Of a stretch of 64,000 nucleotides of DNA, positions 6,891-46,547 are shown piece by piece. The notes beneath the pieces are model-generated. The model did not search any database, had not been told where the DNA came from, and saw only the letters and a list, made by a program, of their open reading frames with translations. Source of the DNA: an uncultured delta proteobacterium (GTDB taxonomy: Bacteria > Desulfobacterota > Binatia > UBA9968). The translations under genes and the position numbers were made by a program. The stretch is from assembly GCA_963760795.1 (NCBI GenBank), contig CAVXEP010000022.1, positions 96,001 to 160,000 on the forward strand, given 5' to 3'. The number at the start of each line of letters is the position of its first letter. Positions within the stretch are counted from its first letter, which is position 1.

Positions 6891-6979
6891 TGGTGCCCGG
6901 AGCCGGACTCGAACCGGCACAGCGCTTTCGCACCGAGGGATTTTAAGTCCCTTGTGTCTACCTATTCCACCATCCGGGC
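6891..6979 (-). tRNA. tRNA-Leu(UAA)
   Basis: Reverse complement GCCCGGATGGTGGAATAGGTAGACACAAGGGACTTAAAATCCCTCGGTGCGAAAGCGCTGTGCCGGTTCGAGTCCGGCTCCGGGCACCA: acceptor stem, TAA anticodon, long variable arm, CCA end. Confidence 0.97.
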
Positions 6980-37202: not shown

Positions 37203-37631
37203 ATGACGATAAATTTGACCAACCTCACGAGCTATCGGGTGATCTACGGCGACACCGACCAAATGGGCGTGGTTTATTACGCCAATTATCTGCGCTGGTT
37301 CGAACGCGGCCGTTCGGAGTTTTTGCGCCAGATTGGCTTACCCTACGCAACCATCGAAGCAGCCGGCCTCCACTTTCCAGTGGCCGAAGTCACCTGCCGC
37401 TATGCCCAGTCGGCGCGTTACGACGATGTCATCGACATCGCCACGACACTGGTCGACCTAAGCCGAGTCTATCTGGTTTTTGATTACCAAATTTCCCGCC
37501 AAGCCGACCAACTCAGCCTCGCCACGGGATCGACCAAGCACGCCTGCATCGACCACGAGGGCCAGGTGAAACGTCTTCCGAAAATGCTCTTGGACGCAGT
37601 CGAGGTAGCGACGCGAAATAGCCAGGACTAG
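37203..37631 (+). CDS. YbgC/FadM-family acyl-CoA thioesterase
   Basis: YGDTDQMGVVYYANYLRWFERGR. Confidence 0.9.
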   Translation: MTINLTNLTSYRVIYGDTDQMGVVYYANYLRWFERGRSEFLRQIGLPYATIEAAGLHFPVAEVTCRYAQSARYDDVIDIATTLVDLSRVYLVFDYQISRQADQLSLATGSTKHACIDHEGQVKRLPKMLLDAVEVATRNSQD

Positions 37632-38791
37632 CGCAGCGTTTCGCCCTGTAACCGTGCGATCGCCGCGACAATCTCGGATCGTACTGCGTCGTCGCCTTCG
37701 AATTCCAAGCGGCGCTGGAGCGCGTCCCCCGCAGGGACGGTACCAATCTCTCCTAAAGCCCAAGCCGCATGACTGCGCACCAACGGTTCGCTATCGTCGA
37801 GTGTGGCGATCAACGCCGGCACCGCTTCTTGACATTTCAAGTTGCCAAGCGCCACCGCGACATTGCGTAAAAAGCCGCGGCGCTTGGCGCGCAGGATCGG
37901 ACTGCCACGGAAGCGCTGGCGGAATTCAGCTTCGGTCAACGACAGGAGCGGGATCAGTTGCGGCGCCAATAGGCCCGAGCGCGGACCGAACGCCGTCTCG
38001 GCGGTCGCCTGCGCTTTGACATTGTAAGGACAGACATCCTGGCAGATATCGCAGCCAAAAATGTGGTTCCCCACCAGCGGTCGCAGATGGCGCGGCATGG
38101 CGCCCTTGAGCTCGATGGTCAGATAAGAAATACAGCGGCGCGCATCGAGAACATAGGGCCCGACAAAGGCGTTGGTTGGGCAAGCTTTGAGACACAAATC
38201 GCATTGGCCGCAGCGGTCGCGCATCGGTCGGTCGTAGGCCAACGGTAGATCGACAAACAGCTCGCCGAGAAAAAACCACGAGCCCCGTTGCGGCGAAATC
38301 AAATGGGTGTTCTTGCCGATCCATCCGAGGCCGGCGACACCGGCGAAATCTCTTTCTAACACCGGTCCGGAATCGACAAAGGCGCGCCCTTCTATGGATT
38401 CGCCGCAAAGCGCACGAATGGTTTCGAGCAACCGCTCTAAGCGCGCTTTAATAATCTCGTGATAATCATCGCCCCAGGCATAGCGTGAGATCCAGCCCTC
38501 CGAGTTGTCCGGCATCGCCGGCCGGGCAAACGGCGTGTAGTAATTCATGCCGACGGAAATAATCGACTGCGCCCAGGGCACCAGCTCGTGGGGATCGCGG
38601 CGTAGCGCTTCGGTGCGGCTCAGGTAGCCCAGCTCGCCGGCAAAACCGTCGCGCAGCCAGCGCGCGAAGGATTCGCCGTGGGGCGGCAACTGAACCGGCG
38701 AGATGCCGGCGAGCGCGAAACCCAGTTCCTGCGCCGCCGCTTTAATATGAGCGGACAGAGTTGCGCGCGCAGTGTCGGGCGAAGAGTTCAT
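37628..38791 (-). CDS. queG: Epoxyqueuosine reductase
   Basis: ISRYAWGDDYH, GWIGKN, CGQCDLCLKACPT, GCDICQDVCP, C-terminal HEAT repeats. Confidence 0.95.
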   Translation of the reverse strand: MNSSPDTARATLSAHIKAAAQELGFALAGISPVQLPPHGESFARWLRDGFAGELGYLSRTEALRRDPHELVPWAQSIISVGMNYYTPFARPAMPDNSEGWISRYAWGDDYHEIIKARLERLLETIRALCGESIEGRAFVDSGPVLERDFAGVAGLGWIGKNTHLISPQRGSWFFLGELFVDLPLAYDRPMRDRCGQCDLCLKACPTNAFVGPYVLDARRCISYLTIELKGAMPRHLRPLVGNHIFGCDICQDVCPYNVKAQATAETAFGPRSGLLAPQLIPLLSLTEAEFRQRFRGSPILRAKRRGFLRNVAVALGNLKCQEAVPALIATLDDSEPLVRSHAAWALGEIGTVPAGDALQRRLEFEGDDAVRSEIVAAIARLQGETLR

Positions 38792-38854
38792 GAACCGAGA
38801 TTCGCGACGGTGCAGCGCTGTTGGCAACGACCATCGCCTAGCGCGGCGCAGCCG

Positions 38855-39075
38855 CAAGCAAAGTTAACAAGAAATTTCACCACAGAGTTCACAGAGCAGA
38901 AGATTTGCATTCGGAATATTTCCCGCCAAGCCAGCAAGGCCGCGAGTGATCTAAGAAAGATTTCCCCCAAGGGTCGAAATGACAACAATTCCGAACTTGG
39001 CGACTTTGCGACTTTGCGGGAGGAACATCTGAATCCAAGAATTTGCCGCCAGCGAAATTCACACGGCGCAGATGG
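38855..39075. repeat. Composite intergenic dispersed repeat
   Basis: 38972-39003 matches the reverse complement of 54552-54583 at 31/32; cacagag units also at 44538-44566. Confidence 0.65.
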
Positions 39076-39086
39076 AACAGTCGCGC

Positions 39087-39530
39087 TCAGTGGTAGGATG
39101 TTTTGCTATCCGGCGCCGCGCTCACGTCGTCGAGCAACGTCTTGCGCCCAGCAAAGCCATCTTCGATTCGATGATAGTGCGCCACGCTGGCTTCGCCGAT
39201 CTGCCAACAGAGAAACACCACTTCCGAACCGAGCATGCAGGGAAAGTCAATCAATCCCTGCTCGACGCCTTTGCACACGCAGCCATGGCCGTTAATCGCC
39301 GTCACCCAATCCTTGATCTGCGTGACCAGTTTCAGGACCTCGCCATCCTCGCGCAATCGTTCCATCAGATTGGCCGCGTCGGGATCGAGCTGCTCGCGCC
39401 GAATCACCGCCTCGCTGACGCCCTTCAAGCGCCGGATATTTTCCAGGATTTGCTCCACCAGCGGCCGCAGCACCGGCAAGAGTCCGTTGGCTTCGTTGAC
39501 CGTGAAGAGTCGAGGAAAATTGGCGTCCAT
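39087..39530 (-). CDS. DUF2203-family protein
   Basis: FTVNEANGLLP, GLIDFP, LCWQIGE, GFAGR. Confidence 0.88.
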   Translation of the reverse strand: MDANFPRLFTVNEANGLLPVLRPLVEQILENIRRLKGVSEAVIRREQLDPDAANLMERLREDGEVLKLVTQIKDWVTAINGHGCVCKGVEQGLIDFPCMLGSEVVFLCWQIGEASVAHYHRIEDGFAGRKTLLDDVSAAPDSKTSYH

Positions 39531-39589
39531 GTATGGCTTCTTTCAAACTCTCGCCGGGCTGGGCGCGTTAAAGAACCCCGCGCCGGCGC

Positions 39590-40885
39590 TTACAGCTTCA
39601 TGCCTTCGCGGATTTTCCGCAGCAGCGCGATGTTGTCCGAGTGGCCGGTCATGCGCGCGTGAATCGCGCCGCGAATCGGCCGGCCGAGCAAATAGAAATC
39701 GCCGAGGATATCGAGAATCTTATGGCGCGCGAATTCGTCGGCGAAACGCAGCTCGGTGTTGACGATCTTCTCGTCGTCGATCAGGATAAAATTGCTCAAC
39801 CGTCCGCCGTTGGCCAGACCCATGGTTTGCAGCTTGGCGATGTCTTTGAGAAAGCCGAAGGTCCGCGCCGGTGCGATCTCCTCGCGAAACGATGCGGCGC
39901 CGCGATGACGATAGGTATACTGCTGTTCGCCGACCGGATTGGGATAGCACAGCTCATAGTGCACCGAGAAGCTCTCCGCCGGTTCGATGGCGATGGACTC
40001 GCCGCCCTTGGCTTCAACCCGATAGGCGCGGTCGATAACGATCTCAGCGGTTTCTTCATCTTCCTGCTGAATGCCGGCTTCGTCGATGGCCTGGCAAAAC
40101 TCCAGCGCCGAGCCGTCGAGAATCGGCACTTCGCCGTGAACTTTGATGAGCAGATTGCCGATCCCATAACTGTGCAGTACCGCGAGCAAGTGCTCGACGG
40201 TGCCAACGGCGAATCCTTGGGTACGCAATGAGGTCGCGTAACCGGTGGAGCCGACGTAGTCCAAATGCGCCGGCACCGTGACTTCGCCGGAAATACCGGT
40301 AAAGCGAATTCCGCTGTTGGGCGGCAACGGATGCAAAATCAAGCCGGTCTTCACGCCCGAATGGAGCCCTTGGCCGGATAGCACGACGCTTTTTTTCAAG
40401 GTCCTTTGCTTGACGTTGCTCGACGCCACGCCCACCGACGACGCGTCGCCGCCCTTAGTCGCGGCAGTCTTCCTCTTGGCTCGGCTTAGCTGGCCCAGGG
40501 TATTCGACGACTCACCCAAAGCGCGCTGCACGGTCAGGAGCAGGCCGTCCAGGGAAACCGGCTTTTCGAGAAAATCGAAGGCGCCGAACTTCGTCGCGGT
40601 CACCGCCGTGTGAATATTGCCATGACCGGAAATCATCACGACATTGAGGTCCGGCTCCTGAAACTTGATTTCCTTGAGCAAGCCGATGCCATCGACCTGA
40701 GGCATCCAGATGTCTAGTAAAACAAGCTCGGGCCGTTCTTTACGAATCAGGTCGAGCACTTGTGTGCCGTCGCGGGTATCGATGACGCGGTAGCCTTCGT
40801 CGCGCAGCGCTTCGCGCACCGACTCGCGCACATCGTCTTCGTCGTCGACGACTAAAATCGTTTTGTTAACCGCCAGCTCGTCCAC
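39590..40885 (-). CDS. lpxC: Fusion of an NtrX-like receiver domain and LpxC (UDP-3-O-acyl-GlcNAc deacetylase)
   Basis: REC: VVDD, LLDIWMP, ISGHG, FLEKP. LpxC: QRTL, GLHSG, TVEHL, EVPILDGSA, APARTFGF, RHKILD, TGH. One 431-aa ORF with GGAGG RBS. Confidence 0.92.
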   Translation of the reverse strand: MDELAVNKTILVVDDEDDVRESVREALRDEGYRVIDTRDGTQVLDLIRKERPELVLLDIWMPQVDGIGLLKEIKFQEPDLNVVMISGHGNIHTAVTATKFGAFDFLEKPVSLDGLLLTVQRALGESSNTLGQLSRAKRKTAATKGGDASSVGVASSNVKQRTLKKSVVLSGQGLHSGVKTGLILHPLPPNSGIRFTGISGEVTVPAHLDYVGSTGYATSLRTQGFAVGTVEHLLAVLHSYGIGNLLIKVHGEVPILDGSALEFCQAIDEAGIQQEDEETAEIVIDRAYRVEAKGGESIAIEPAESFSVHYELCYPNPVGEQQYTYRHRGAASFREEIAPARTFGFLKDIAKLQTMGLANGGRLSNFILIDDEKIVNTELRFADEFARHKILDILGDFYLLGRPIRGAIHARMTGHSDNIALLRKIREGMKL

Positions 40886-40897
40886 TCACCCTCCAAG

Positions 40898-43108
40898 TTA
40901 CGAATGTACCGCTCGTTTAGCAACCTCCGAAGCGGGGAACTCAATGCTAAAGCGAGTCCCCCTGGGTTCGTTGGGCAATGCCCGAATATAGCCGCGATGA
41001 TCCTCGATGATTTGACTGACGATGGTCAGGCCCAGGCCAGTGCCGTTTTCCTTGGTGGAAAAATACGGTTCGAATATTTTCGAGCGCGTCTCCGGCGCCA
41101 AACCGCTGCCGTTATCGGCCACTTCCAACGTCACCACGTCCCGCCCACGATTGTAAACGGTCGATAACTTGATCTCACCGTCATCTTGCACCGCCGCCAC
41201 CGCGTTGTCGAGCAGATTGATCAGCACTCGCTTGATCTGGTCGCGGTCCAAATCTAACGCCGGAATCACCCCGGAGCTAAAATGAAATTGTATACCTTTG
41301 TGCCCTTCATTGAAAAGAAACAGCGACTCGCTGACGATCTCATTGAGATCCTGGGTCACTAGCTTAGCCGACGGCAGCCGCGCGAATTGGGAAAACTCAT
41401 TGACCAGGCTTTTCAGCTCTTCGACCTGCTGAATGATCGTCGTCGTGCATTTATCCAAAATACCGCCGTCGCCGCCGAGCATGCTGGCGTAGCGCTTGCG
41501 CAGCCGCTCGGCCGACAGTTGGATCGGCGTTAGCGGATTTTTGATCTCATGGGCGATGCGCCGCGCCACTTCGCGCCAGGCTTCCATGCGCTGCACTTTC
41601 TGAATTTGCGTAATGTCTTCGAGAAAAACCATGACCCCCAACGCCGAACCGTCGTCGTCGCGCAGGGTCGCCGCCGTCACCACCGCCGTCAGTTGTTGAT
41701 CGATCAGCGGGATCTTGATATCGCGCTCGATCTTCTCCAAGTCCTTGACGCTGTCGATGATCTCGGCCACCACCCGCAGCGGCTCCGACTGTAAAACATC
41801 GCGGTAGTTTTTCGCCAAGGCCTGCTCGGCTTTAACTCCGAGCATCTGCTCGGCCGCCTTGTTCCAAGTGGTGATATTTCCCGCCGGGTCCACCGACACG
41901 ACTCCGGCGGCGATGTTGGCGAGCAGGGTTTGCACCACCTTGCCGCGCCGTTCCAGTTCCAAGGTGATCTGCTTCAGGTCGCCGGTCATCTGATTGAACG
42001 ACTGGACTAAGACGCCGATCTCATCATCGCCGCTGGCCTCAATCTTATAATCCCAATTCCCCTGGGCGACTTCATGGGTACCCTCGGCGAGCTGCTGAAT
42101 CGGCACGGTGATGCCCTTGGAAAGATAAAATCCCCACCAAGTGGCCGAAAACATGATCACCAAGGTGATCAGAAACAGCGTCAAGATGTAACTGTTCTTA
42201 ACCGGCGCCTTGAGAAAGGTTAAATATTTGTACTGCTCGTAGGACTGCGAGATTTGCGCCGCCCGTTTGGTCAGACTCTTGGGCACATGATAGTCGACCA
42301 CGGCGACGCCGACGATGCGCTTTTCCGCGCCGAAGATCGGCGCGCCGCCGCGGATCACGTCGCCTTCGCCCAACGGCTGGGTCCAAGTCACGCCGATGCC
42401 GCGCAACGCCCGCGCCAAAAACTCATCGTCGGGTTTTAAATCCACAGCGTTTTTCGACTTGTCGCTCACCGCGACGATCGCCTCGCTCTGCGCCGAATAG
42501 ATCTCCACCGTGCCGAGGTTATACTCGCGCTGTTTGTCCTCGACGAGCCGGCGCAACTCAGCCCGCCGCGCGTTCTCAAAAAGTTTCTGCTCGGTGATTT
42601 TCTCACTCAACCGGCGGGCAAAAAACATCGCGTTGTTGGCGGAATTTTGATAATAGGTCTGGCCGATTTCCAAAGACCCCTGAAGAGCGCTTTCCACCTT
42701 GGAATCGAACCAGCGGTCGAAGGAATGGGTCAACAAGCCGCCGGCGATAGCGAACAACAACAGGCTCGGCACGATCGACAGCGCGACAAAAGCCAAGACC
42801 AGGCGCGACTGCAAGCGTGAGCCAAGCAAGCGGCGACGGCGCTCAAAGACCAGCTTGACCAGATTGCGCACGACCAGAAAAACCAACAGCACCAGCAGAA
42901 TGATGTTGATATTGATGATGAAGAAAAACACGATGTTGCTGCCGAGGGAATTCTCCAGCGAGATGTCCGGTGATTGCACTTCGAAAAAGATCAACGCCGC
43001 CACCATCAGCGCCGCCACCGCGATGACGATGCCCTCGCGCTTGCGCCGTTTGGCCTCTTCGGCTTTAATGCTGTCTTGGCGACTATGAGTTGGGTTTAGG
43101 GATTCCAT
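40898..43108 (-). CDS. NtrY-like membrane sensor histidine kinase (HAMP, PAS, HisKA, HATPase)
   Basis: Multiple N-terminal TM segments, AWREVARRIAHEIKNPLTPIQLSAERL, NLLDNA, DNGSG, GTGLGL. Confidence 0.92.
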   Translation of the reverse strand: MESLNPTHSRQDSIKAEEAKRRKREGIVIAVAALMVAALIFFEVQSPDISLENSLGSNIVFFFIININIILLVLLVFLVVRNLVKLVFERRRRLLGSRLQSRLVLAFVALSIVPSLLLFAIAGGLLTHSFDRWFDSKVESALQGSLEIGQTYYQNSANNAMFFARRLSEKITEQKLFENARRAELRRLVEDKQREYNLGTVEIYSAQSEAIVAVSDKSKNAVDLKPDDEFLARALRGIGVTWTQPLGEGDVIRGGAPIFGAEKRIVGVAVVDYHVPKSLTKRAAQISQSYEQYKYLTFLKAPVKNSYILTLFLITLVIMFSATWWGFYLSKGITVPIQQLAEGTHEVAQGNWDYKIEASGDDEIGVLVQSFNQMTGDLKQITLELERRGKVVQTLLANIAAGVVSVDPAGNITTWNKAAEQMLGVKAEQALAKNYRDVLQSEPLRVVAEIIDSVKDLEKIERDIKIPLIDQQLTAVVTAATLRDDDGSALGVMVFLEDITQIQKVQRMEAWREVARRIAHEIKNPLTPIQLSAERLRKRYASMLGGDGGILDKCTTTIIQQVEELKSLVNEFSQFARLPSAKLVTQDLNEIVSESLFLFNEGHKGIQFHFSSGVIPALDLDRDQIKRVLINLLDNAVAAVQDDGEIKLSTVYNRGRDVVTLEVADNGSGLAPETRSKIFEPYFSTKENGTGLGLTIVSQIIEDHRGYIRALPNEPRGTRFSIEFPASEVAKRAVHS

Positions 43109-43147
43109 CGGCGCGGCCGAGCTAACGGCGAGAAAACTGGCAAATTT

Positions 43148-43360
43148 TTAACGTTTGAGCAAGTAAACCACAAGCGAAATCACGATACTGACGACAATGC
43201 AGGTGGTCAGCGGGAAATGGAAACTAAAGCGTTCCCGCTGGATATGGATATCGCCCGGCAGGTGGCCAAGCCATGGCAACCGGTCGGAAACCGACACCAG
43301 CACACCGGCGATAACGATGACGATGCCAAGATATATGAGAGTCTTGCCTAACCCGGCCAT
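43148..43360 (-). CDS. DUF2905 small membrane protein
   Basis: LGHLPGDI, FHFPLTTCI. Confidence 0.9.
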   Translation of the reverse strand: MAGLGKTLIYLGIVIVIAGVLVSVSDRLPWLGHLPGDIHIQRERFSFHFPLTTCIVVSIVISLVVYLLKR

Positions 43361-43393
43361 AATTCAGATCTCAAATCGCACCGTCAGTTAATC

Positions 43394-44422
43394 TCATTCA
43401 AACAAATCCGGCTGGCCTTTGCCGGTGGCGGGCTTGGCCGCGCCCGGTTGCCGGCCAAAATGTTCGTAAGCCAGCACGGTAGCCACCCGGCCGCGCGGTG
43501 TCCGTTGAATGAATCCGGCTTGGATCAAAAATGGCTCGTAGACATCCTCGATGGTATCCTTCTCTTCGCCGATGGCAGCAGCCAAAGTCTCCACGCCCAC
43601 CGGCCCACCGGCAAACTTGTCGATCATCGCCAGCAGCAACATGGTATCCATCTTATCGAGGCCCAGGCGATCGACCTCGAGCATTCTGAGCGCCTCCACC
43701 GTCACCGCTTTAGTGATCTTACCGTCGCTTTTCACCTGGGCGTAGTCGCGCACCCGGCGCAGCAAGCGGTTGGCGATACGCGGCGTGCCGCGCGAGCGGC
43801 TGGCGATCTCGGTGATGCCGTCTTGATCTTGCTCGACGCTGAGAATCGCCGCCGAGCGCTTGAGAATGCGCGCCAGCGATCCCGCATCGTAAAAATCCAG
43901 ACGGAAACTCTGGCCGAAGCGGTCGCGCAGTGGCGAAGTAATCAAGCCCGAGCGCGTGGTTGCGCCGATCAAAGTGAATTTTTTAAGCGGCAACTTGATC
44001 GACTTGGCCGCCGGGCCCTGGCCGACCATGATGTCGATCTCGTAGTCTTCCATGGCCGGATACAGAACCTCTTCGACCACATGGTTGAGGCGGTGAATTT
44101 CGTCGATAAACAAGACGTCGCCATGGTCGAGGTTGGTCAAAAGCGCCGCCAGATCGCCGGCGCGCTCGATGATCGGCCCCGAGGTGGCCTTGATGTTGAC
44201 GCCCATCTCGCGGGCGATGATATAGGCGATGGAAGTTTTGCCCAGCCCCGGAGGGCCATGGAAAAGAATATGATCGAGGACATCACCGCGCGCCTGCGCC
44301 GCGGCGATGGCGACTTTGAGATTTTCTTTGACCCGTTCTTGGCCGACGTACTCGTCAAAGCCGCGCGGCCGCAAGCTCAGCTCGAATCCGGAATCGTCGT
44401 CGGTGCGATGGCCGTCCAACAT
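43394..44422 (-). CDS. ruvB: Holliday junction branch migration helicase RuvB
   Basis: [31 protein letters not shown]. Confidence 0.97.
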
Positions 44423-44585
44423 GGTCAGTGTGCGCTCGTTCTACAAACCCGGAGGGCGGGTCCCGGCCCTACATTCGGATGCGAATTTCATGTGCTCTTT
44501 GCGTTCCTTGCGGCCAATCTTGCGGATCCAAATCATCCACTCTGTGAACTCTGCGTCCTCTGTGGCGAAACTTATTCTCCTCTTT

Positions 44586-45182
44586 TTAGTGCCCCATCCG
44601 CTGCAAGGTCTCGCGCAGGACATCTTCCAGCGATAGCGAGTCGTTCTTGAGCACATCGCGGACAGTTTTTTCAATCTCCGGTTTTTTATATCCTAGATTG
44701 ATCAAGGCCGAAACCGCGTCCAGCATCTTTTGCGAAGACGCTTCGGGTTTCGCCGTGCTATCAAGGGTCGCCGGGGTGAACGTCAAGAACTTATCCTTCA
44801 ACTCGACAATCATGCGCTCAGCCAGCTTCTTGCCCACTCCGGGGATCGACACCAAACGCACCTGGTCACCATTGCGCAACGCCCGCGCCAATTCCTCAGC
44901 CGGGATGCCCGATAAGATATTGAGCGCGAGCTTGGGGCCGATACCCGACACACCCATGAGCAGCAGAAACACCTGCTTCTCGGCGAGATCGTGAAAGCCG
45001 AACAACTGCAGCGCGTCTTCGCGCACATGGGTATGAATCTGCAAACTCATCGGCGCGCCGAGATCCGGCAAGCGGTAAAAAACATTGAGCGGGATGAAAA
45101 CCAGATAGCCGACACCGCCAACATCGATGACCACTTCGCCGGGCTGCTTTTGCGCGAGTTTGCCGCTGATTTGCGCGATCAC
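44586..45182 (-). CDS. ruvA: Holliday junction binding protein RuvA
   Basis: GVGY, HVRED, VSGIGPK, PGVGKKLAER. Confidence 0.97.
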   Translation of the reverse strand: MIAQISGKLAQKQPGEVVIDVGGVGYLVFIPLNVFYRLPDLGAPMSLQIHTHVREDALQLFGFHDLAEKQVFLLLMGVSGIGPKLALNILSGIPAEELARALRNGDQVRLVSIPGVGKKLAERMIVELKDKFLTFTPATLDSTAKPEASSQKMLDAVSALINLGYKKPEIEKTVRDVLKNDSLSLEDVLRETLQRMGH

Positions 45183-45224
45183 GTCAAGCCCACGGGTAGG
45201 GTTAACGAATTGTCCATCGGCCGT

Positions 45225-45795
45225 TCAACGAACGCGACCACCCCGCGGCCGCAGGGGCGTCGGCATTTTCGTCATCACCTCGGCAACCCGGCTGGTGAAC
45301 GCTTGCCGGTTGAGATGGCAGATCGCGGCGGCAAGAGCGTCCGCGGCATCCGCCGGCACCGGTCCCGATACTTTCAATATGGATCCGATCATCATTTGCA
45401 CTTGCTGCTTGGTGGCGTGGCCATAGCCCACCACCGCCGATTTTATCTCCACCGCGCTATACTCGTGAACCTCGACATCTTGCTCAGCCGCCGCCAGCAG
45501 CGCGACGCCGCGCACCTGGCCGAGTTTCAAGGCGCTTTGGACATTTTGCGCAAAGAAAACTTTTTCCAGGCTGACGCCGTCCGGGTGAAACTCGCGCACG
45601 ACATTTCGCCAGTTCGGTGTAGATCCGGCGCAGGCGGCGCGCTTGGGGCTCGGCGCTTGAGGAATTTATAGTGCCATGGCCCATATGGCGCAGCGCGTTG
45701 CCGATAACCTGGACAACCCCCCAGCCGGTCGCCATGGTTCCCGGATCGATGCCCAGGATGATGCGCGGCAGTGGTTTGTTGCCGGGGTCCGCCAC
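45225..45795 (-). CDS. ruvC: Crossover junction endonuclease RuvC; frameshift near 45603
   Basis: ILGIDPG in ORF 45484-45795; EKVFF, LGQVRG, DAADALA in ORF 45225-45599. Confidence 0.92.
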
Positions 45796-45800
45796 TGCGG

Positions 45801-46547
45801 CTAGCTCACCTTGTCCATCAGCTCATCGGGGATGTGAAAGTTGGCCGCGACATTTTGCACGTCGTCATGATCTTCCAGTTCTTCGCTGAGTTTTAAGACT
45901 TGCTCGACATTTTTGGCGTCGACGTCGACGGTATTCTTGGGCACCAGGCTAACCTGAGCGCTGGCGATGGTGATTTTTTCCTGGTCCAGCCGTTCTTTGA
46001 CTTTTTCGAAATCCTCGGGCGGGGCGATCACCTCGAAGACCTCGCCCTCGTCGCGGACATCTTCGGCGCCGGCATCGAGAGCGATATCCATCAAGCGGTC
46101 CTCGTCGATCTGCGTCTTGTCGACGGTGAGGATGCCCTTCTTATCGAACATCCAGCCGACGCAGCCGGTCTCACCCATGTTGCCGCCATGCTTGGAAAAC
46201 ATCCGGCGGATCTCCGACACCGTGCGATTCTTGTTGTCGGTCAACACCTGGGCGATGATCGCCACGCCGCCCGGACCATATCCTTCGTATTGAATCTCTT
46301 CGTAGGTAACGCCTTCGAGCTCGCCGGTGCCTTTTTTGATCGCGCGCTCGATATTATCACTCGGCATACTGCTGCCGCGGGCGGTGAGTACCGCCGTGCG
46401 CAGACGCGGATTGGCATTGATATCGCCGCCGCCCATGCGTGCCGCCACGGTGATTTCCTTAATCAGCTTGGTAAAAATTTTGCCGCGCTTGGCATCCTTG
46501 GCGGCTTTCTTATGCTTGATCGTGCTCCATTTAGAATGGCCGGACAT
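45801..46547 (-). CDS. yebC: YebC/PmpR-family protein
   Basis: [28 protein letters not shown]. Confidence 0.97.

Follow-up and report, generated by a model that had tools for sequence, protein, structure and literature searches.

LpxC is the enzyme that commits the cell to lipid A synthesis; it is the control point of lipopolysaccharide (LPS) synthesis and a long-standing antibiotic target. Response regulators having an enzyme as output are known, among them PleD/WspR, RpfG and CheB, the last composed of a receiver and a methylesterase whose active site is occluded by the unphosphorylated receiver. Here we describe a gene coding for a receiver domain fused to LpxC (REC-LpxC), located directly downstream of a gene for an NtrY-like sensor histidine kinase in a 64,000-nt stretch of DNA, hereafter the window, from an uncultured soil bacterium, a delta proteobacterium assigned to Binatia (assembly GCA_963760795.1, contig CAVXEP010000022.1, positions 96,001 to 160,000 of the forward strand). 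We regard it as reasonably likely, judging from the sequence, that the two proteins form a two-component system in which the output of the response regulator is LpxC itself, with its activity controlled by phosphorylation.

The controls of LpxC named in the available part of a 2025 review, 'The regulation of lipid A biosynthesis' (PMC12444477), are proteolysis through FtsH/LapB/YejM, Lon, PA-type activators and transcription, and NtrYX is treated there only as a transcriptional influence on lpxC; the terms 'receiver', 'response regulator', 'fusion', 'fused' and 'Desulfovibrio' are absent from that part of the text. The FtsH/LapB/YejM control of E. coli acts, according to the same part, by proteolysis via a C-terminal degron, whereas the fused proteins described here are without such a tail. 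When LapB (PF18073) was searched for in the genome of the window, only the zinc ribbon of RadA/Sms was matched (G000:C5:18415-18489), and the model, which also matches Gram-positive controls, is a poor test for LapB. No description of a receiver-LpxC fusion was found in the full-text literature, subscription journals being outside its coverage; an earlier note on this DNA had likewise known of no characterised example, and both these searches and the available part of the review agree with it.

Two described kinase-regulator pairs come near to the present locus. In Desulfovibrio, the sigma54 activator DVU2934 acts on lpxC and on no other target (PMC3333781), and in a mutant of the kinase Dde_3000 no gene but lpxC is strongly raised in expression (PMC4045070). 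This pair tied to lpxC (DVU2931/Dde_3000 and DVU2934/Dde_3003) resembles an operon of the window's phylum described below, the likeness being drawn from published gene order only, and the order lpxC-kinase-activator is also mentioned for S. fumaroxidans by Rajeev et al. (PMC3333781). In Desulfovibrio the control is transcriptional and runs via sigma54; in the window regulator the AAA+ and HTH modules have been lost, and LpxC is part of the same chain. The second pair is NtrY/NtrX of Alphaproteobacteria (R. sphaeroides, C. crescentus, Brucella), in which the kinase shares with that of the window the architecture NtrY_N-HAMP-PAS-HisKA-HATPase. NtrX is a DNA-binding protein with a large regulon, whereas the regulator adjacent to the window kinase is REC-LpxC and not of the DNA-binding NtrX type. 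Loss of ntrYX in R. sphaeroides raises lpxC mRNA 8.8-fold and LPS as well (PMC7240162).

The organisation of the window protein, with an N-terminal receiver, a flexible linker and a C-terminal hydrolase in one chain, is that of CheB. Unlike CheB, its output is an essential envelope-biosynthesis enzyme, the sequence relation is confined to the receiver, and docking is only suggested by a model (predicted template modelling score, pTM, 0.85). Another natural LpxC fusion, LpxC-FabZ (NF009667), carries a C-terminal pathway enzyme but not an N-terminal signalling domain.

The REC-LpxC gene (39590..40885, minus strand, as are all the features of this locus) starts at a GTG codon and codes for 431 aa plus the stop. 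The receiver domain (residues 10-119; 40529..40858, minus strand) is recognised by Pfam Response_reg (PF00072; E 2.1e-30, 105.6 bits vs a cut-off of 30.2) and the LpxC deacetylase domain (residues 160-425; 39611..40408, minus strand) by PF03331 (E 1.4e-82, 277.7 bits vs a cut-off of 27), with positions 1-266 of the 268 in the profile covered; the NCBIfam lpxC equivalog TIGR00325 is matched with 250 bits vs a cut-off of 187. Between the two domains lies a variable linker (residues ~120-159; 40409..40528, minus strand), predicted to be disordered, of low identity and with a low predicted local distance difference test (pLDDT) score. Only 6 residues follow the LpxC domain, so that the protein has no C-terminal tail.

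The receiver has all of its signature residues: D14, D15, D58 (in LLDIWMP, codon 40712-40714), S86, K108 and F105, the last being the switch aromatic. The LpxC residues E231/H232 (VEH), T342/F343, H388/K389/D392 (HKILD), D396 and H415 (GH) are likewise complete. In alignment, the VEH, TFGF, HKILD and GH motifs all match P. aeruginosa LpxC, in whose motifs H232, H388, D392, E231, H415, T342 and K389 find their counterparts; the zinc-ligand and catalytic residues of E. coli LpxC are H79, H238, D242, E78, H265, T191 and K239. The best model for the receiver is that of NtrX (NF051870), which reaches 138.5 bits against a cut-off of 600 and is covered at its positions 3-156 only, and the closest solved receivers are those of NtrX (4d6x and 5m7n, E about 1e-29). 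Since the match falls below the cut-off and no AAA+ or HTH module is present, the protein is not an NtrX, and without GAFTGA, Walker B and HTH it is not a functional sigma54 activator either. Indeed, Pfam found no AAA+ or HTH family in REC-LpxC at E <= 0.01, linker included, and no AAA+/HTH remnant was found at E <= 5 in its nearest representative, P0121.

The kinase gene (40898..43108, minus strand; 736 aa) is separated from the GTG of the fusion by a 12-nt spacer, CTTGGAGGGTGA (40886..40897, minus strand), which contains a GGAGG ribosome-binding site. Five Pfam families, all above their cut-offs, are found in the kinase, namely NtrY_N (33.5 bits vs a cut-off of 23.2), HAMP (residues 329-379), PAS (393-499), HisKA (511-579) and HATPase_c (621-726), and the H-box reads HEIKNPL with H520. 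Hydropathy places hydrophobic segments at residues ~23-49, 53-90, 99-130 and 301-329, the third and fourth of them enclosing a loop of ~170 aa. No NtrY model is among the best 25 of the 98 NCBIfam families that match the kinase. No second NtrY-like kinase is encoded in the genome of the window, the runner-up matching in part, with 28% identity, and none of the many sigma54-type activators of the genome reaches the NtrX cut-off. A weak hint that kinase and fusion are co-transcribed comes from a 988-nt RNA-library contig, covering 40479-41400, that bridges the kinase-receiver junction, in a library in which DNA may be present.

The description given in the earlier note is thus borne out in its parts: ORF calls, Pfam and the spacer as read agree with a 431-aa receiver-LpxC open reading frame (ORF) lying 12 bp downstream of an NtrY-like kinase; the acidic pair, phospho-Asp, Ser and Lys of the NtrX-type receiver are all in place; Pfam, TIGR00325 and the P. 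aeruginosa alignment agree with a complete LpxC having the EH, HKxxD and GH motifs; the linker called flexible is predicted disordered, with pLDDT < 50 at residues 127-153; and the output domains said to be missing, AAA+ and HTH, were indeed not detected by Pfam at the threshold given above. The note's reading of the protein as a direct phosphorylation control of LPS flux is supported in part.

That the fusion is no artefact follows from its homologues and from independent contigs. A protein search of 5.8 billion clustered proteins returned 7935 matches at E <= 0.001, and both Pfam domains are present in all of the best 120 (72-99% identity, 422-446 aa), most of whose source names point to Candidatus Binatia or 'Deltaproteobacteria bacterium' metagenome-assembled genomes (MAGs). 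The linker (40392-40518) is covered by contigs from three independent soil DNA studies, and no indel occurs anywhere in 39400-41400 where these contigs give cover. The earlier note had proposed confirming the linker, looking for a second lpxC and searching for Response_reg together with LpxC and its co-occurrence with ntrY; no indel was seen over the linker, no second locus was found, the best 120 matches carry both domains and the kinase is kept in all 47 fusion-bearing genomes of the phylum sample introduced below.

A single LpxC locus is present in the genome of the window (88.9% complete), in which lpxA, lpxB and lpxK lie together on another contig. Within the same order, LpxC was found in 40/41 genomes (that of the window counted; G004 unpublished), always in an open frame that could accommodate a fusion, except at contig ends; in the remaining genome, G019 (91% complete), no LpxC was found. 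On this evidence REC-LpxC is the sole LpxC of the genome, with a housekeeping role and a predicted deacetylase activity.

To place the fusion in context, 200 genomes were sampled from the window's phylum. An LpxC of the fused clade occurs in 47 of them, the architecture being checked by Pfam or tblastn in 18 of the 47 and the other fused and stand-alone classes resting on identity and match range; in 45 of these 47 genomes the fused gene is the only LpxC. An NtrY-like kinase (E <= 1e-60) was found in 182/200 genomes, including all 47 with the fusion. Among the genomes for which both loci were listed, a stand-alone lpxC lies <=1.4 kb upstream of the kinase and on the same strand at 34/84 loci, and the fused locus lies directly downstream of the kinase at 13/38, always in the order kinase then fusion. 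Closer to the window, the kinase is found directly upstream of the fusion at 9/10 loci of the order and at 3/3 loci of the class. The stand-alone loci examined (L039-L046) read lpxC, kinase and then a complete activator in 8/8 cases, and these eight activators have Walker A, Walker B and GAFTGA or GSFTGA. An operon formed by lpxC, kinase and sigma54 activator is therefore common in the window's phylum.

The activator disappears where the fusion is found. With one activator as query and a cut-off chosen afterwards, matches at E <= 1e-130 were obtained in 133/153 genomes without the fusion and in 0/47 genomes with it. Where the kinase is remote from the fusion, it has neither a receiver gene nor an activator gene closer than ~3.5 kb at 12/12 loci, and in G074 and G239 no receiver gene stands beside the kinase either. 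The receiver of the window protein is 46-57% identical to the receivers of the operon activators vs <=42% to the other receivers of its own genome, and it has in common with the operon activators the signature DIW(M/L)P, SGH and EKP, which is absent from seven aligned paralogues of its own genome. Because the activator is missing where the fusion occurs, and given the receiver similarity, the common signature and the operon order, we conclude from these comparisons that the fused gene is the descendant of, and the replacement for, the sigma54 activator in the lpxC-kinase-activator operon. A tandem duplication of lpxC-kinase-activator would set the 3' end of the activator beside a copy of lpxC. 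The statement of the earlier note that the fusion lies where NtrX normally sits holds in the evolutionary sense, the fusion genomes having no activator following the kinase; the ancestor indicated here is a GAFTGA-bearing sigma54 activator and not NtrX proper.

Living intermediates of such a replacement were retrieved in a representative search of 1.84 billion clusters, which gave 1818 clusters at E <= 1e-30, and 46 long proteins were picked from the 150 listed. When scanned, these proved to be 22 REC-LpxC, 15 forms with a receiver, a sigma54 AAA domain, its lid and LpxC, 6 AAA-LpxC forms without a receiver, which are probably truncated gene calls, 2 LpxC-FabZ and 1 unrelated protein. One of the 15 (P0138) also carries HTH_8. 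P0137 (491 aa) is a REC-HTH_8-LpxC protein (HTH_8 25.7 bits vs a cut-off of 22, in a lenient scan), and in P0126 HTH_8 is below threshold. The N-terminal residues 5-447 of the long forms are covered by the NtrX model, which at 323-344 bits outscores every other activator model. Among 16 long forms, Walker A is kept in 14, while GAFTGA or a canonical Walker B is found in none. Nitrospinota, Candidatus Entotheonellia and Deltaproteobacteria MAGs are among the source names of these clusters.

In an unrooted maximum-likelihood tree, computed by a careful search from the LpxC domains of 43 fused proteins, 35 stand-alone proteins and 2 LpxC-FabZ proteins (80 in all), a starred branch (99/93) has all 43 fused domains, together with P0201 and P0226, on the same side. 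The window protein pairs with P0121 (100/99), its next neighbours being long forms with weak support (80/71, 81/88); a group of 31, supported at 89/95 without a star, unites all 16 long forms with 10 forms of intermediate length and 5 short ones. Three starred pairs of a long form and its reduced sister, P0144-P0137, P0125-P0126 and P0127/P0146-P0141, indicate that the AAA+ module was lost repeatedly. Taken together, gene order, architectures and tree indicate that a regulator of lpxC was fused to LpxC and then shed its transcription modules. The two LpxC-FabZ domains (P0249, P0263) group with stand-alone LpxC.

A few other candidate architectures were considered and discarded. At three class-level loci (L023-L025, in G150, G183 and G116), open frames of 1007-1423 aa suggested a triple kinase-receiver-LpxC fusion; kinase and fusion are in different frames there, and the length of the frames is due to a G+C content of 67-75%. 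Apparent fusions in Nitrospira/Nitrospiraceae and in an Escarpia endosymbiont (L072, L093, L124) are separate ORFs. A scan of genome contigs with the family profile gave mostly stand-alone LpxC, and of five loci matching beyond the LpxC part, only L047 and L048 are fused.

Which residues were preserved through these rearrangements was read from an alignment of 59 diverse family members, the most distant of them 33% identical to the window protein. In the receiver pocket, D15, S86 and K108 are kept in 59/59 members, D58 in 58/59 and D14 in 56/59; in the LpxC domain, E231, H232, H388, K389, D392, D396 and H415 are kept in 59/59 and T342 in 57/59. The switch aromatic F105 is conserved too, and F343 varies little or not at all. 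Among close homologues, identity is 0.39 in the linker vs 0.85-0.88 in the two domains. Both the phospho-acceptor site and the catalytic site are evidently under constraint. These figures also bear on one alternative, according to which the receiver no longer regulates LpxC at all, the fusion being a frozen accident that gives co-expression and the receiver a phosphate sink or a signal to other targets. The decay of the transcription modules after fusion is real, with GAFTGA in 0/16 long forms, and the receiver may have been lost from P0201 and P0226, as would suit such an accident. Against it, the phospho-pocket is intact in 58/59 members, while AAA+/HTH was lost at least three separate times, and the kinase is kept in 47/47 fusion genomes and, at the loci looked at, has no other receiver in its vicinity. 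A useless receiver would be expected to decay like the AAA+ module. We hold the frozen accident to be very improbable.

By the same reasoning, with the transcription modules lost and the phospho-pocket and kinase kept, the receiver must still act, and LpxC is the sole part attached to it. We infer phosphotransfer from the kinase to the receiver, and an effect on catalysis rather than on the stability or the location of the enzyme. The membrane kinase, with its extracytoplasmic loop, HAMP and PAS, would phosphorylate D58 of the receiver; the receiver, flexibly tethered, would dock on or release LpxC depending on its phosphorylation state, in the manner of CheB, and docking or release would alter the activity of LpxC. 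Lipid A synthesis would then probably be switched at the protein level by phosphorylation. As to the sign of the effect, we lean, by analogy, towards activation upon phosphorylation, since in Desulfovibrio a phospho-activator turns lpxC on.

AlphaFold, given the alignment of 59 sequences, yields a model with a mean pLDDT of 87 and a pTM of 0.85, in which pLDDT is < 50 only at residues 1-4 and 127-153. Its LpxC part superposes on solved LpxC chains with E ~1e-32, a target-normalised template modelling score of 0.84-0.96 and a root-mean-square deviation of 1.3-2.1 Å. By our own arithmetic, a pTM of ~0.6 would be expected if receiver and LpxC were not placed relative to each other, and the value of 0.85 thus implies, in the model, a defined contact between the two domains.

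Such a contact has no part in a second alternative, by which phosphorylation drives dimerisation of the receiver, as in the NtrC family or in PleD, and so shifts the location of LpxC (for instance to the membrane near LpxA/LpxD) or its cooperativity. LpxC acts as a monomer in the species studied, and there is no obvious way in which dimerisation would change its activity. The receiver is nonetheless of the NtrC/NtrX class (4d6x, 5m7n), its alpha4-beta5-alpha5 region averages 72% identity to the operon activators, the ancestral long forms had an oligomerising AAA+ module, and a tether of variable length is compatible with dimerisation. On balance we hold this explanation to be improbable.

A third alternative is that the receiver sets the amount of LpxC, phosphorylation showing or hiding a degradation signal or recruiting a protease, as with RssB or CpdR. 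The C-terminal tail has a median length of 7 aa (0-18) in the 43 fused proteins vs 19 aa (4-42) in the 35 stand-alone LpxC, being found in about half of the stand-alone proteins, and the E. coli-type degron is consequently not available to the fused forms. Proteolysis is the best-known control of LpxC (PMC12444477), the fused forms would need a different handle for it, and the disordered linker could serve as a protease initiation site. No protease or adaptor partner is indicated by the sequence, the unconserved linker fits a specific degron poorly, and the high pTM of the model suggests a defined receiver-LpxC contact instead. We judge control of LpxC amount to be unlikely, if the least so of the three alternatives.

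Control of LpxC activity by receiver docking remains our preferred explanation, and several observations weigh against it or against the history proposed for it. The 200 genomes are mutually related, and the counts drawn from them are not independent events. The fused locus does not adjoin the kinase at 25/38 loci, and the activator cut-off of 1e-130, dividing orthologs from paralogs, was set afterwards at a gap in the score distribution. G074 and G239 keep a canonical LpxC, so that the fusion need not be essential there. The phospho-acceptor is replaced by N in one member of the alignment (P0141) and D14 by E in three. P0201 and P0226 (283-290 aa), which have no receiver, nest inside the fused clade at a starred position, either through secondary receiver loss or because the gene calls are truncated at contig ends. 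The only hint of receiver-LpxC docking is one AlphaFold pTM value. Finally, the linker varies in length from ~29 to 121 aa, and up to ~340 aa in the forms that keep AAA/HTH, which excludes rigid coupling and means that docking must tolerate very different tethers; so variable a tether argues for a receiver that docks and undocks as in CheB, and against transmission through a rigid linker.

In the two genomes having two forms of the enzyme, G074 (L026/L037) and G239 (L027/L038), the canonical LpxC scores 369-374 bits with Pfam and the orphan REC-LpxC 247-279 bits. The canonical lpxC lies just upstream of the kinase in both, in the orders lpxC-kinase-lpxK and lpxC-DUF4390-kinase-NAD kinase.

As to the neighbourhood of the window locus, a DUF2203 gene (39087..39530, minus strand; Pfam E 3.4e-32) lies 59 nt downstream of the fusion on the same strand and may be part of the same operon. 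It is found directly 3' of the fusion at 7/10 loci of the order (L003-L007, L009, L011) and was not detected at the three class-level loci. Further downstream, queG, for epoxyqueuosine reductase (Pfam), occupies 37628-38857 (minus strand). The upstream flank (43394-46547, minus strand) holds ruvB, ruvA, a ruvC-like ORF and a YebC-like gene, named from their translations only, and ruvB is also found 5' of the kinase in the class-level relative L023. A search for the sigma54 promoter TGGCAC-N5-TTGCW with <=2 mismatches gave no match in 43109-43393, ahead of the operon, and across the window the pattern occurs 32 times vs 32.6 expected. Scans of the same region for sigma70 promoters and terminators gave nothing useful. 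The 16-mer TGGCGCGGGCGTTGCG, one of these sigma54-pattern matches that are no more frequent than chance, occurs twice, at 42402-42417 (minus strand) in the kinase gene and at 44875-44890 (minus strand) in ruvA. Rfam gave no match at or near the locus, a tRNA at 6894-6979 (minus strand) being its sole match in the window.

In its broadest form, the finding would mean that a circuit once working through transcription has been condensed into a single protein, with the sigma54 activator of lpxC fused to the product of its target and then stripped, at least three times, of the modules for ATPase activity and DNA binding. This would be the first two-component system having an essential envelope-biosynthesis enzyme as output, and in Binatia and many related lineages LPS flux would be governed chiefly by it, in place of proteolysis of the FtsH/LapB type; for this whole proposition we see the chances as evenly balanced. 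If true, it would add a new mode of LpxC control, in which the enzyme is switched directly by a membrane sensor in a signal-dependent way. The family itself shows stepwise, with living intermediates, how transcriptional control may be replaced by post-translational control through fusion and domain loss. The sensor domain of the kinase would, in that case, point to the envelope signal by which LPS synthesis is set.

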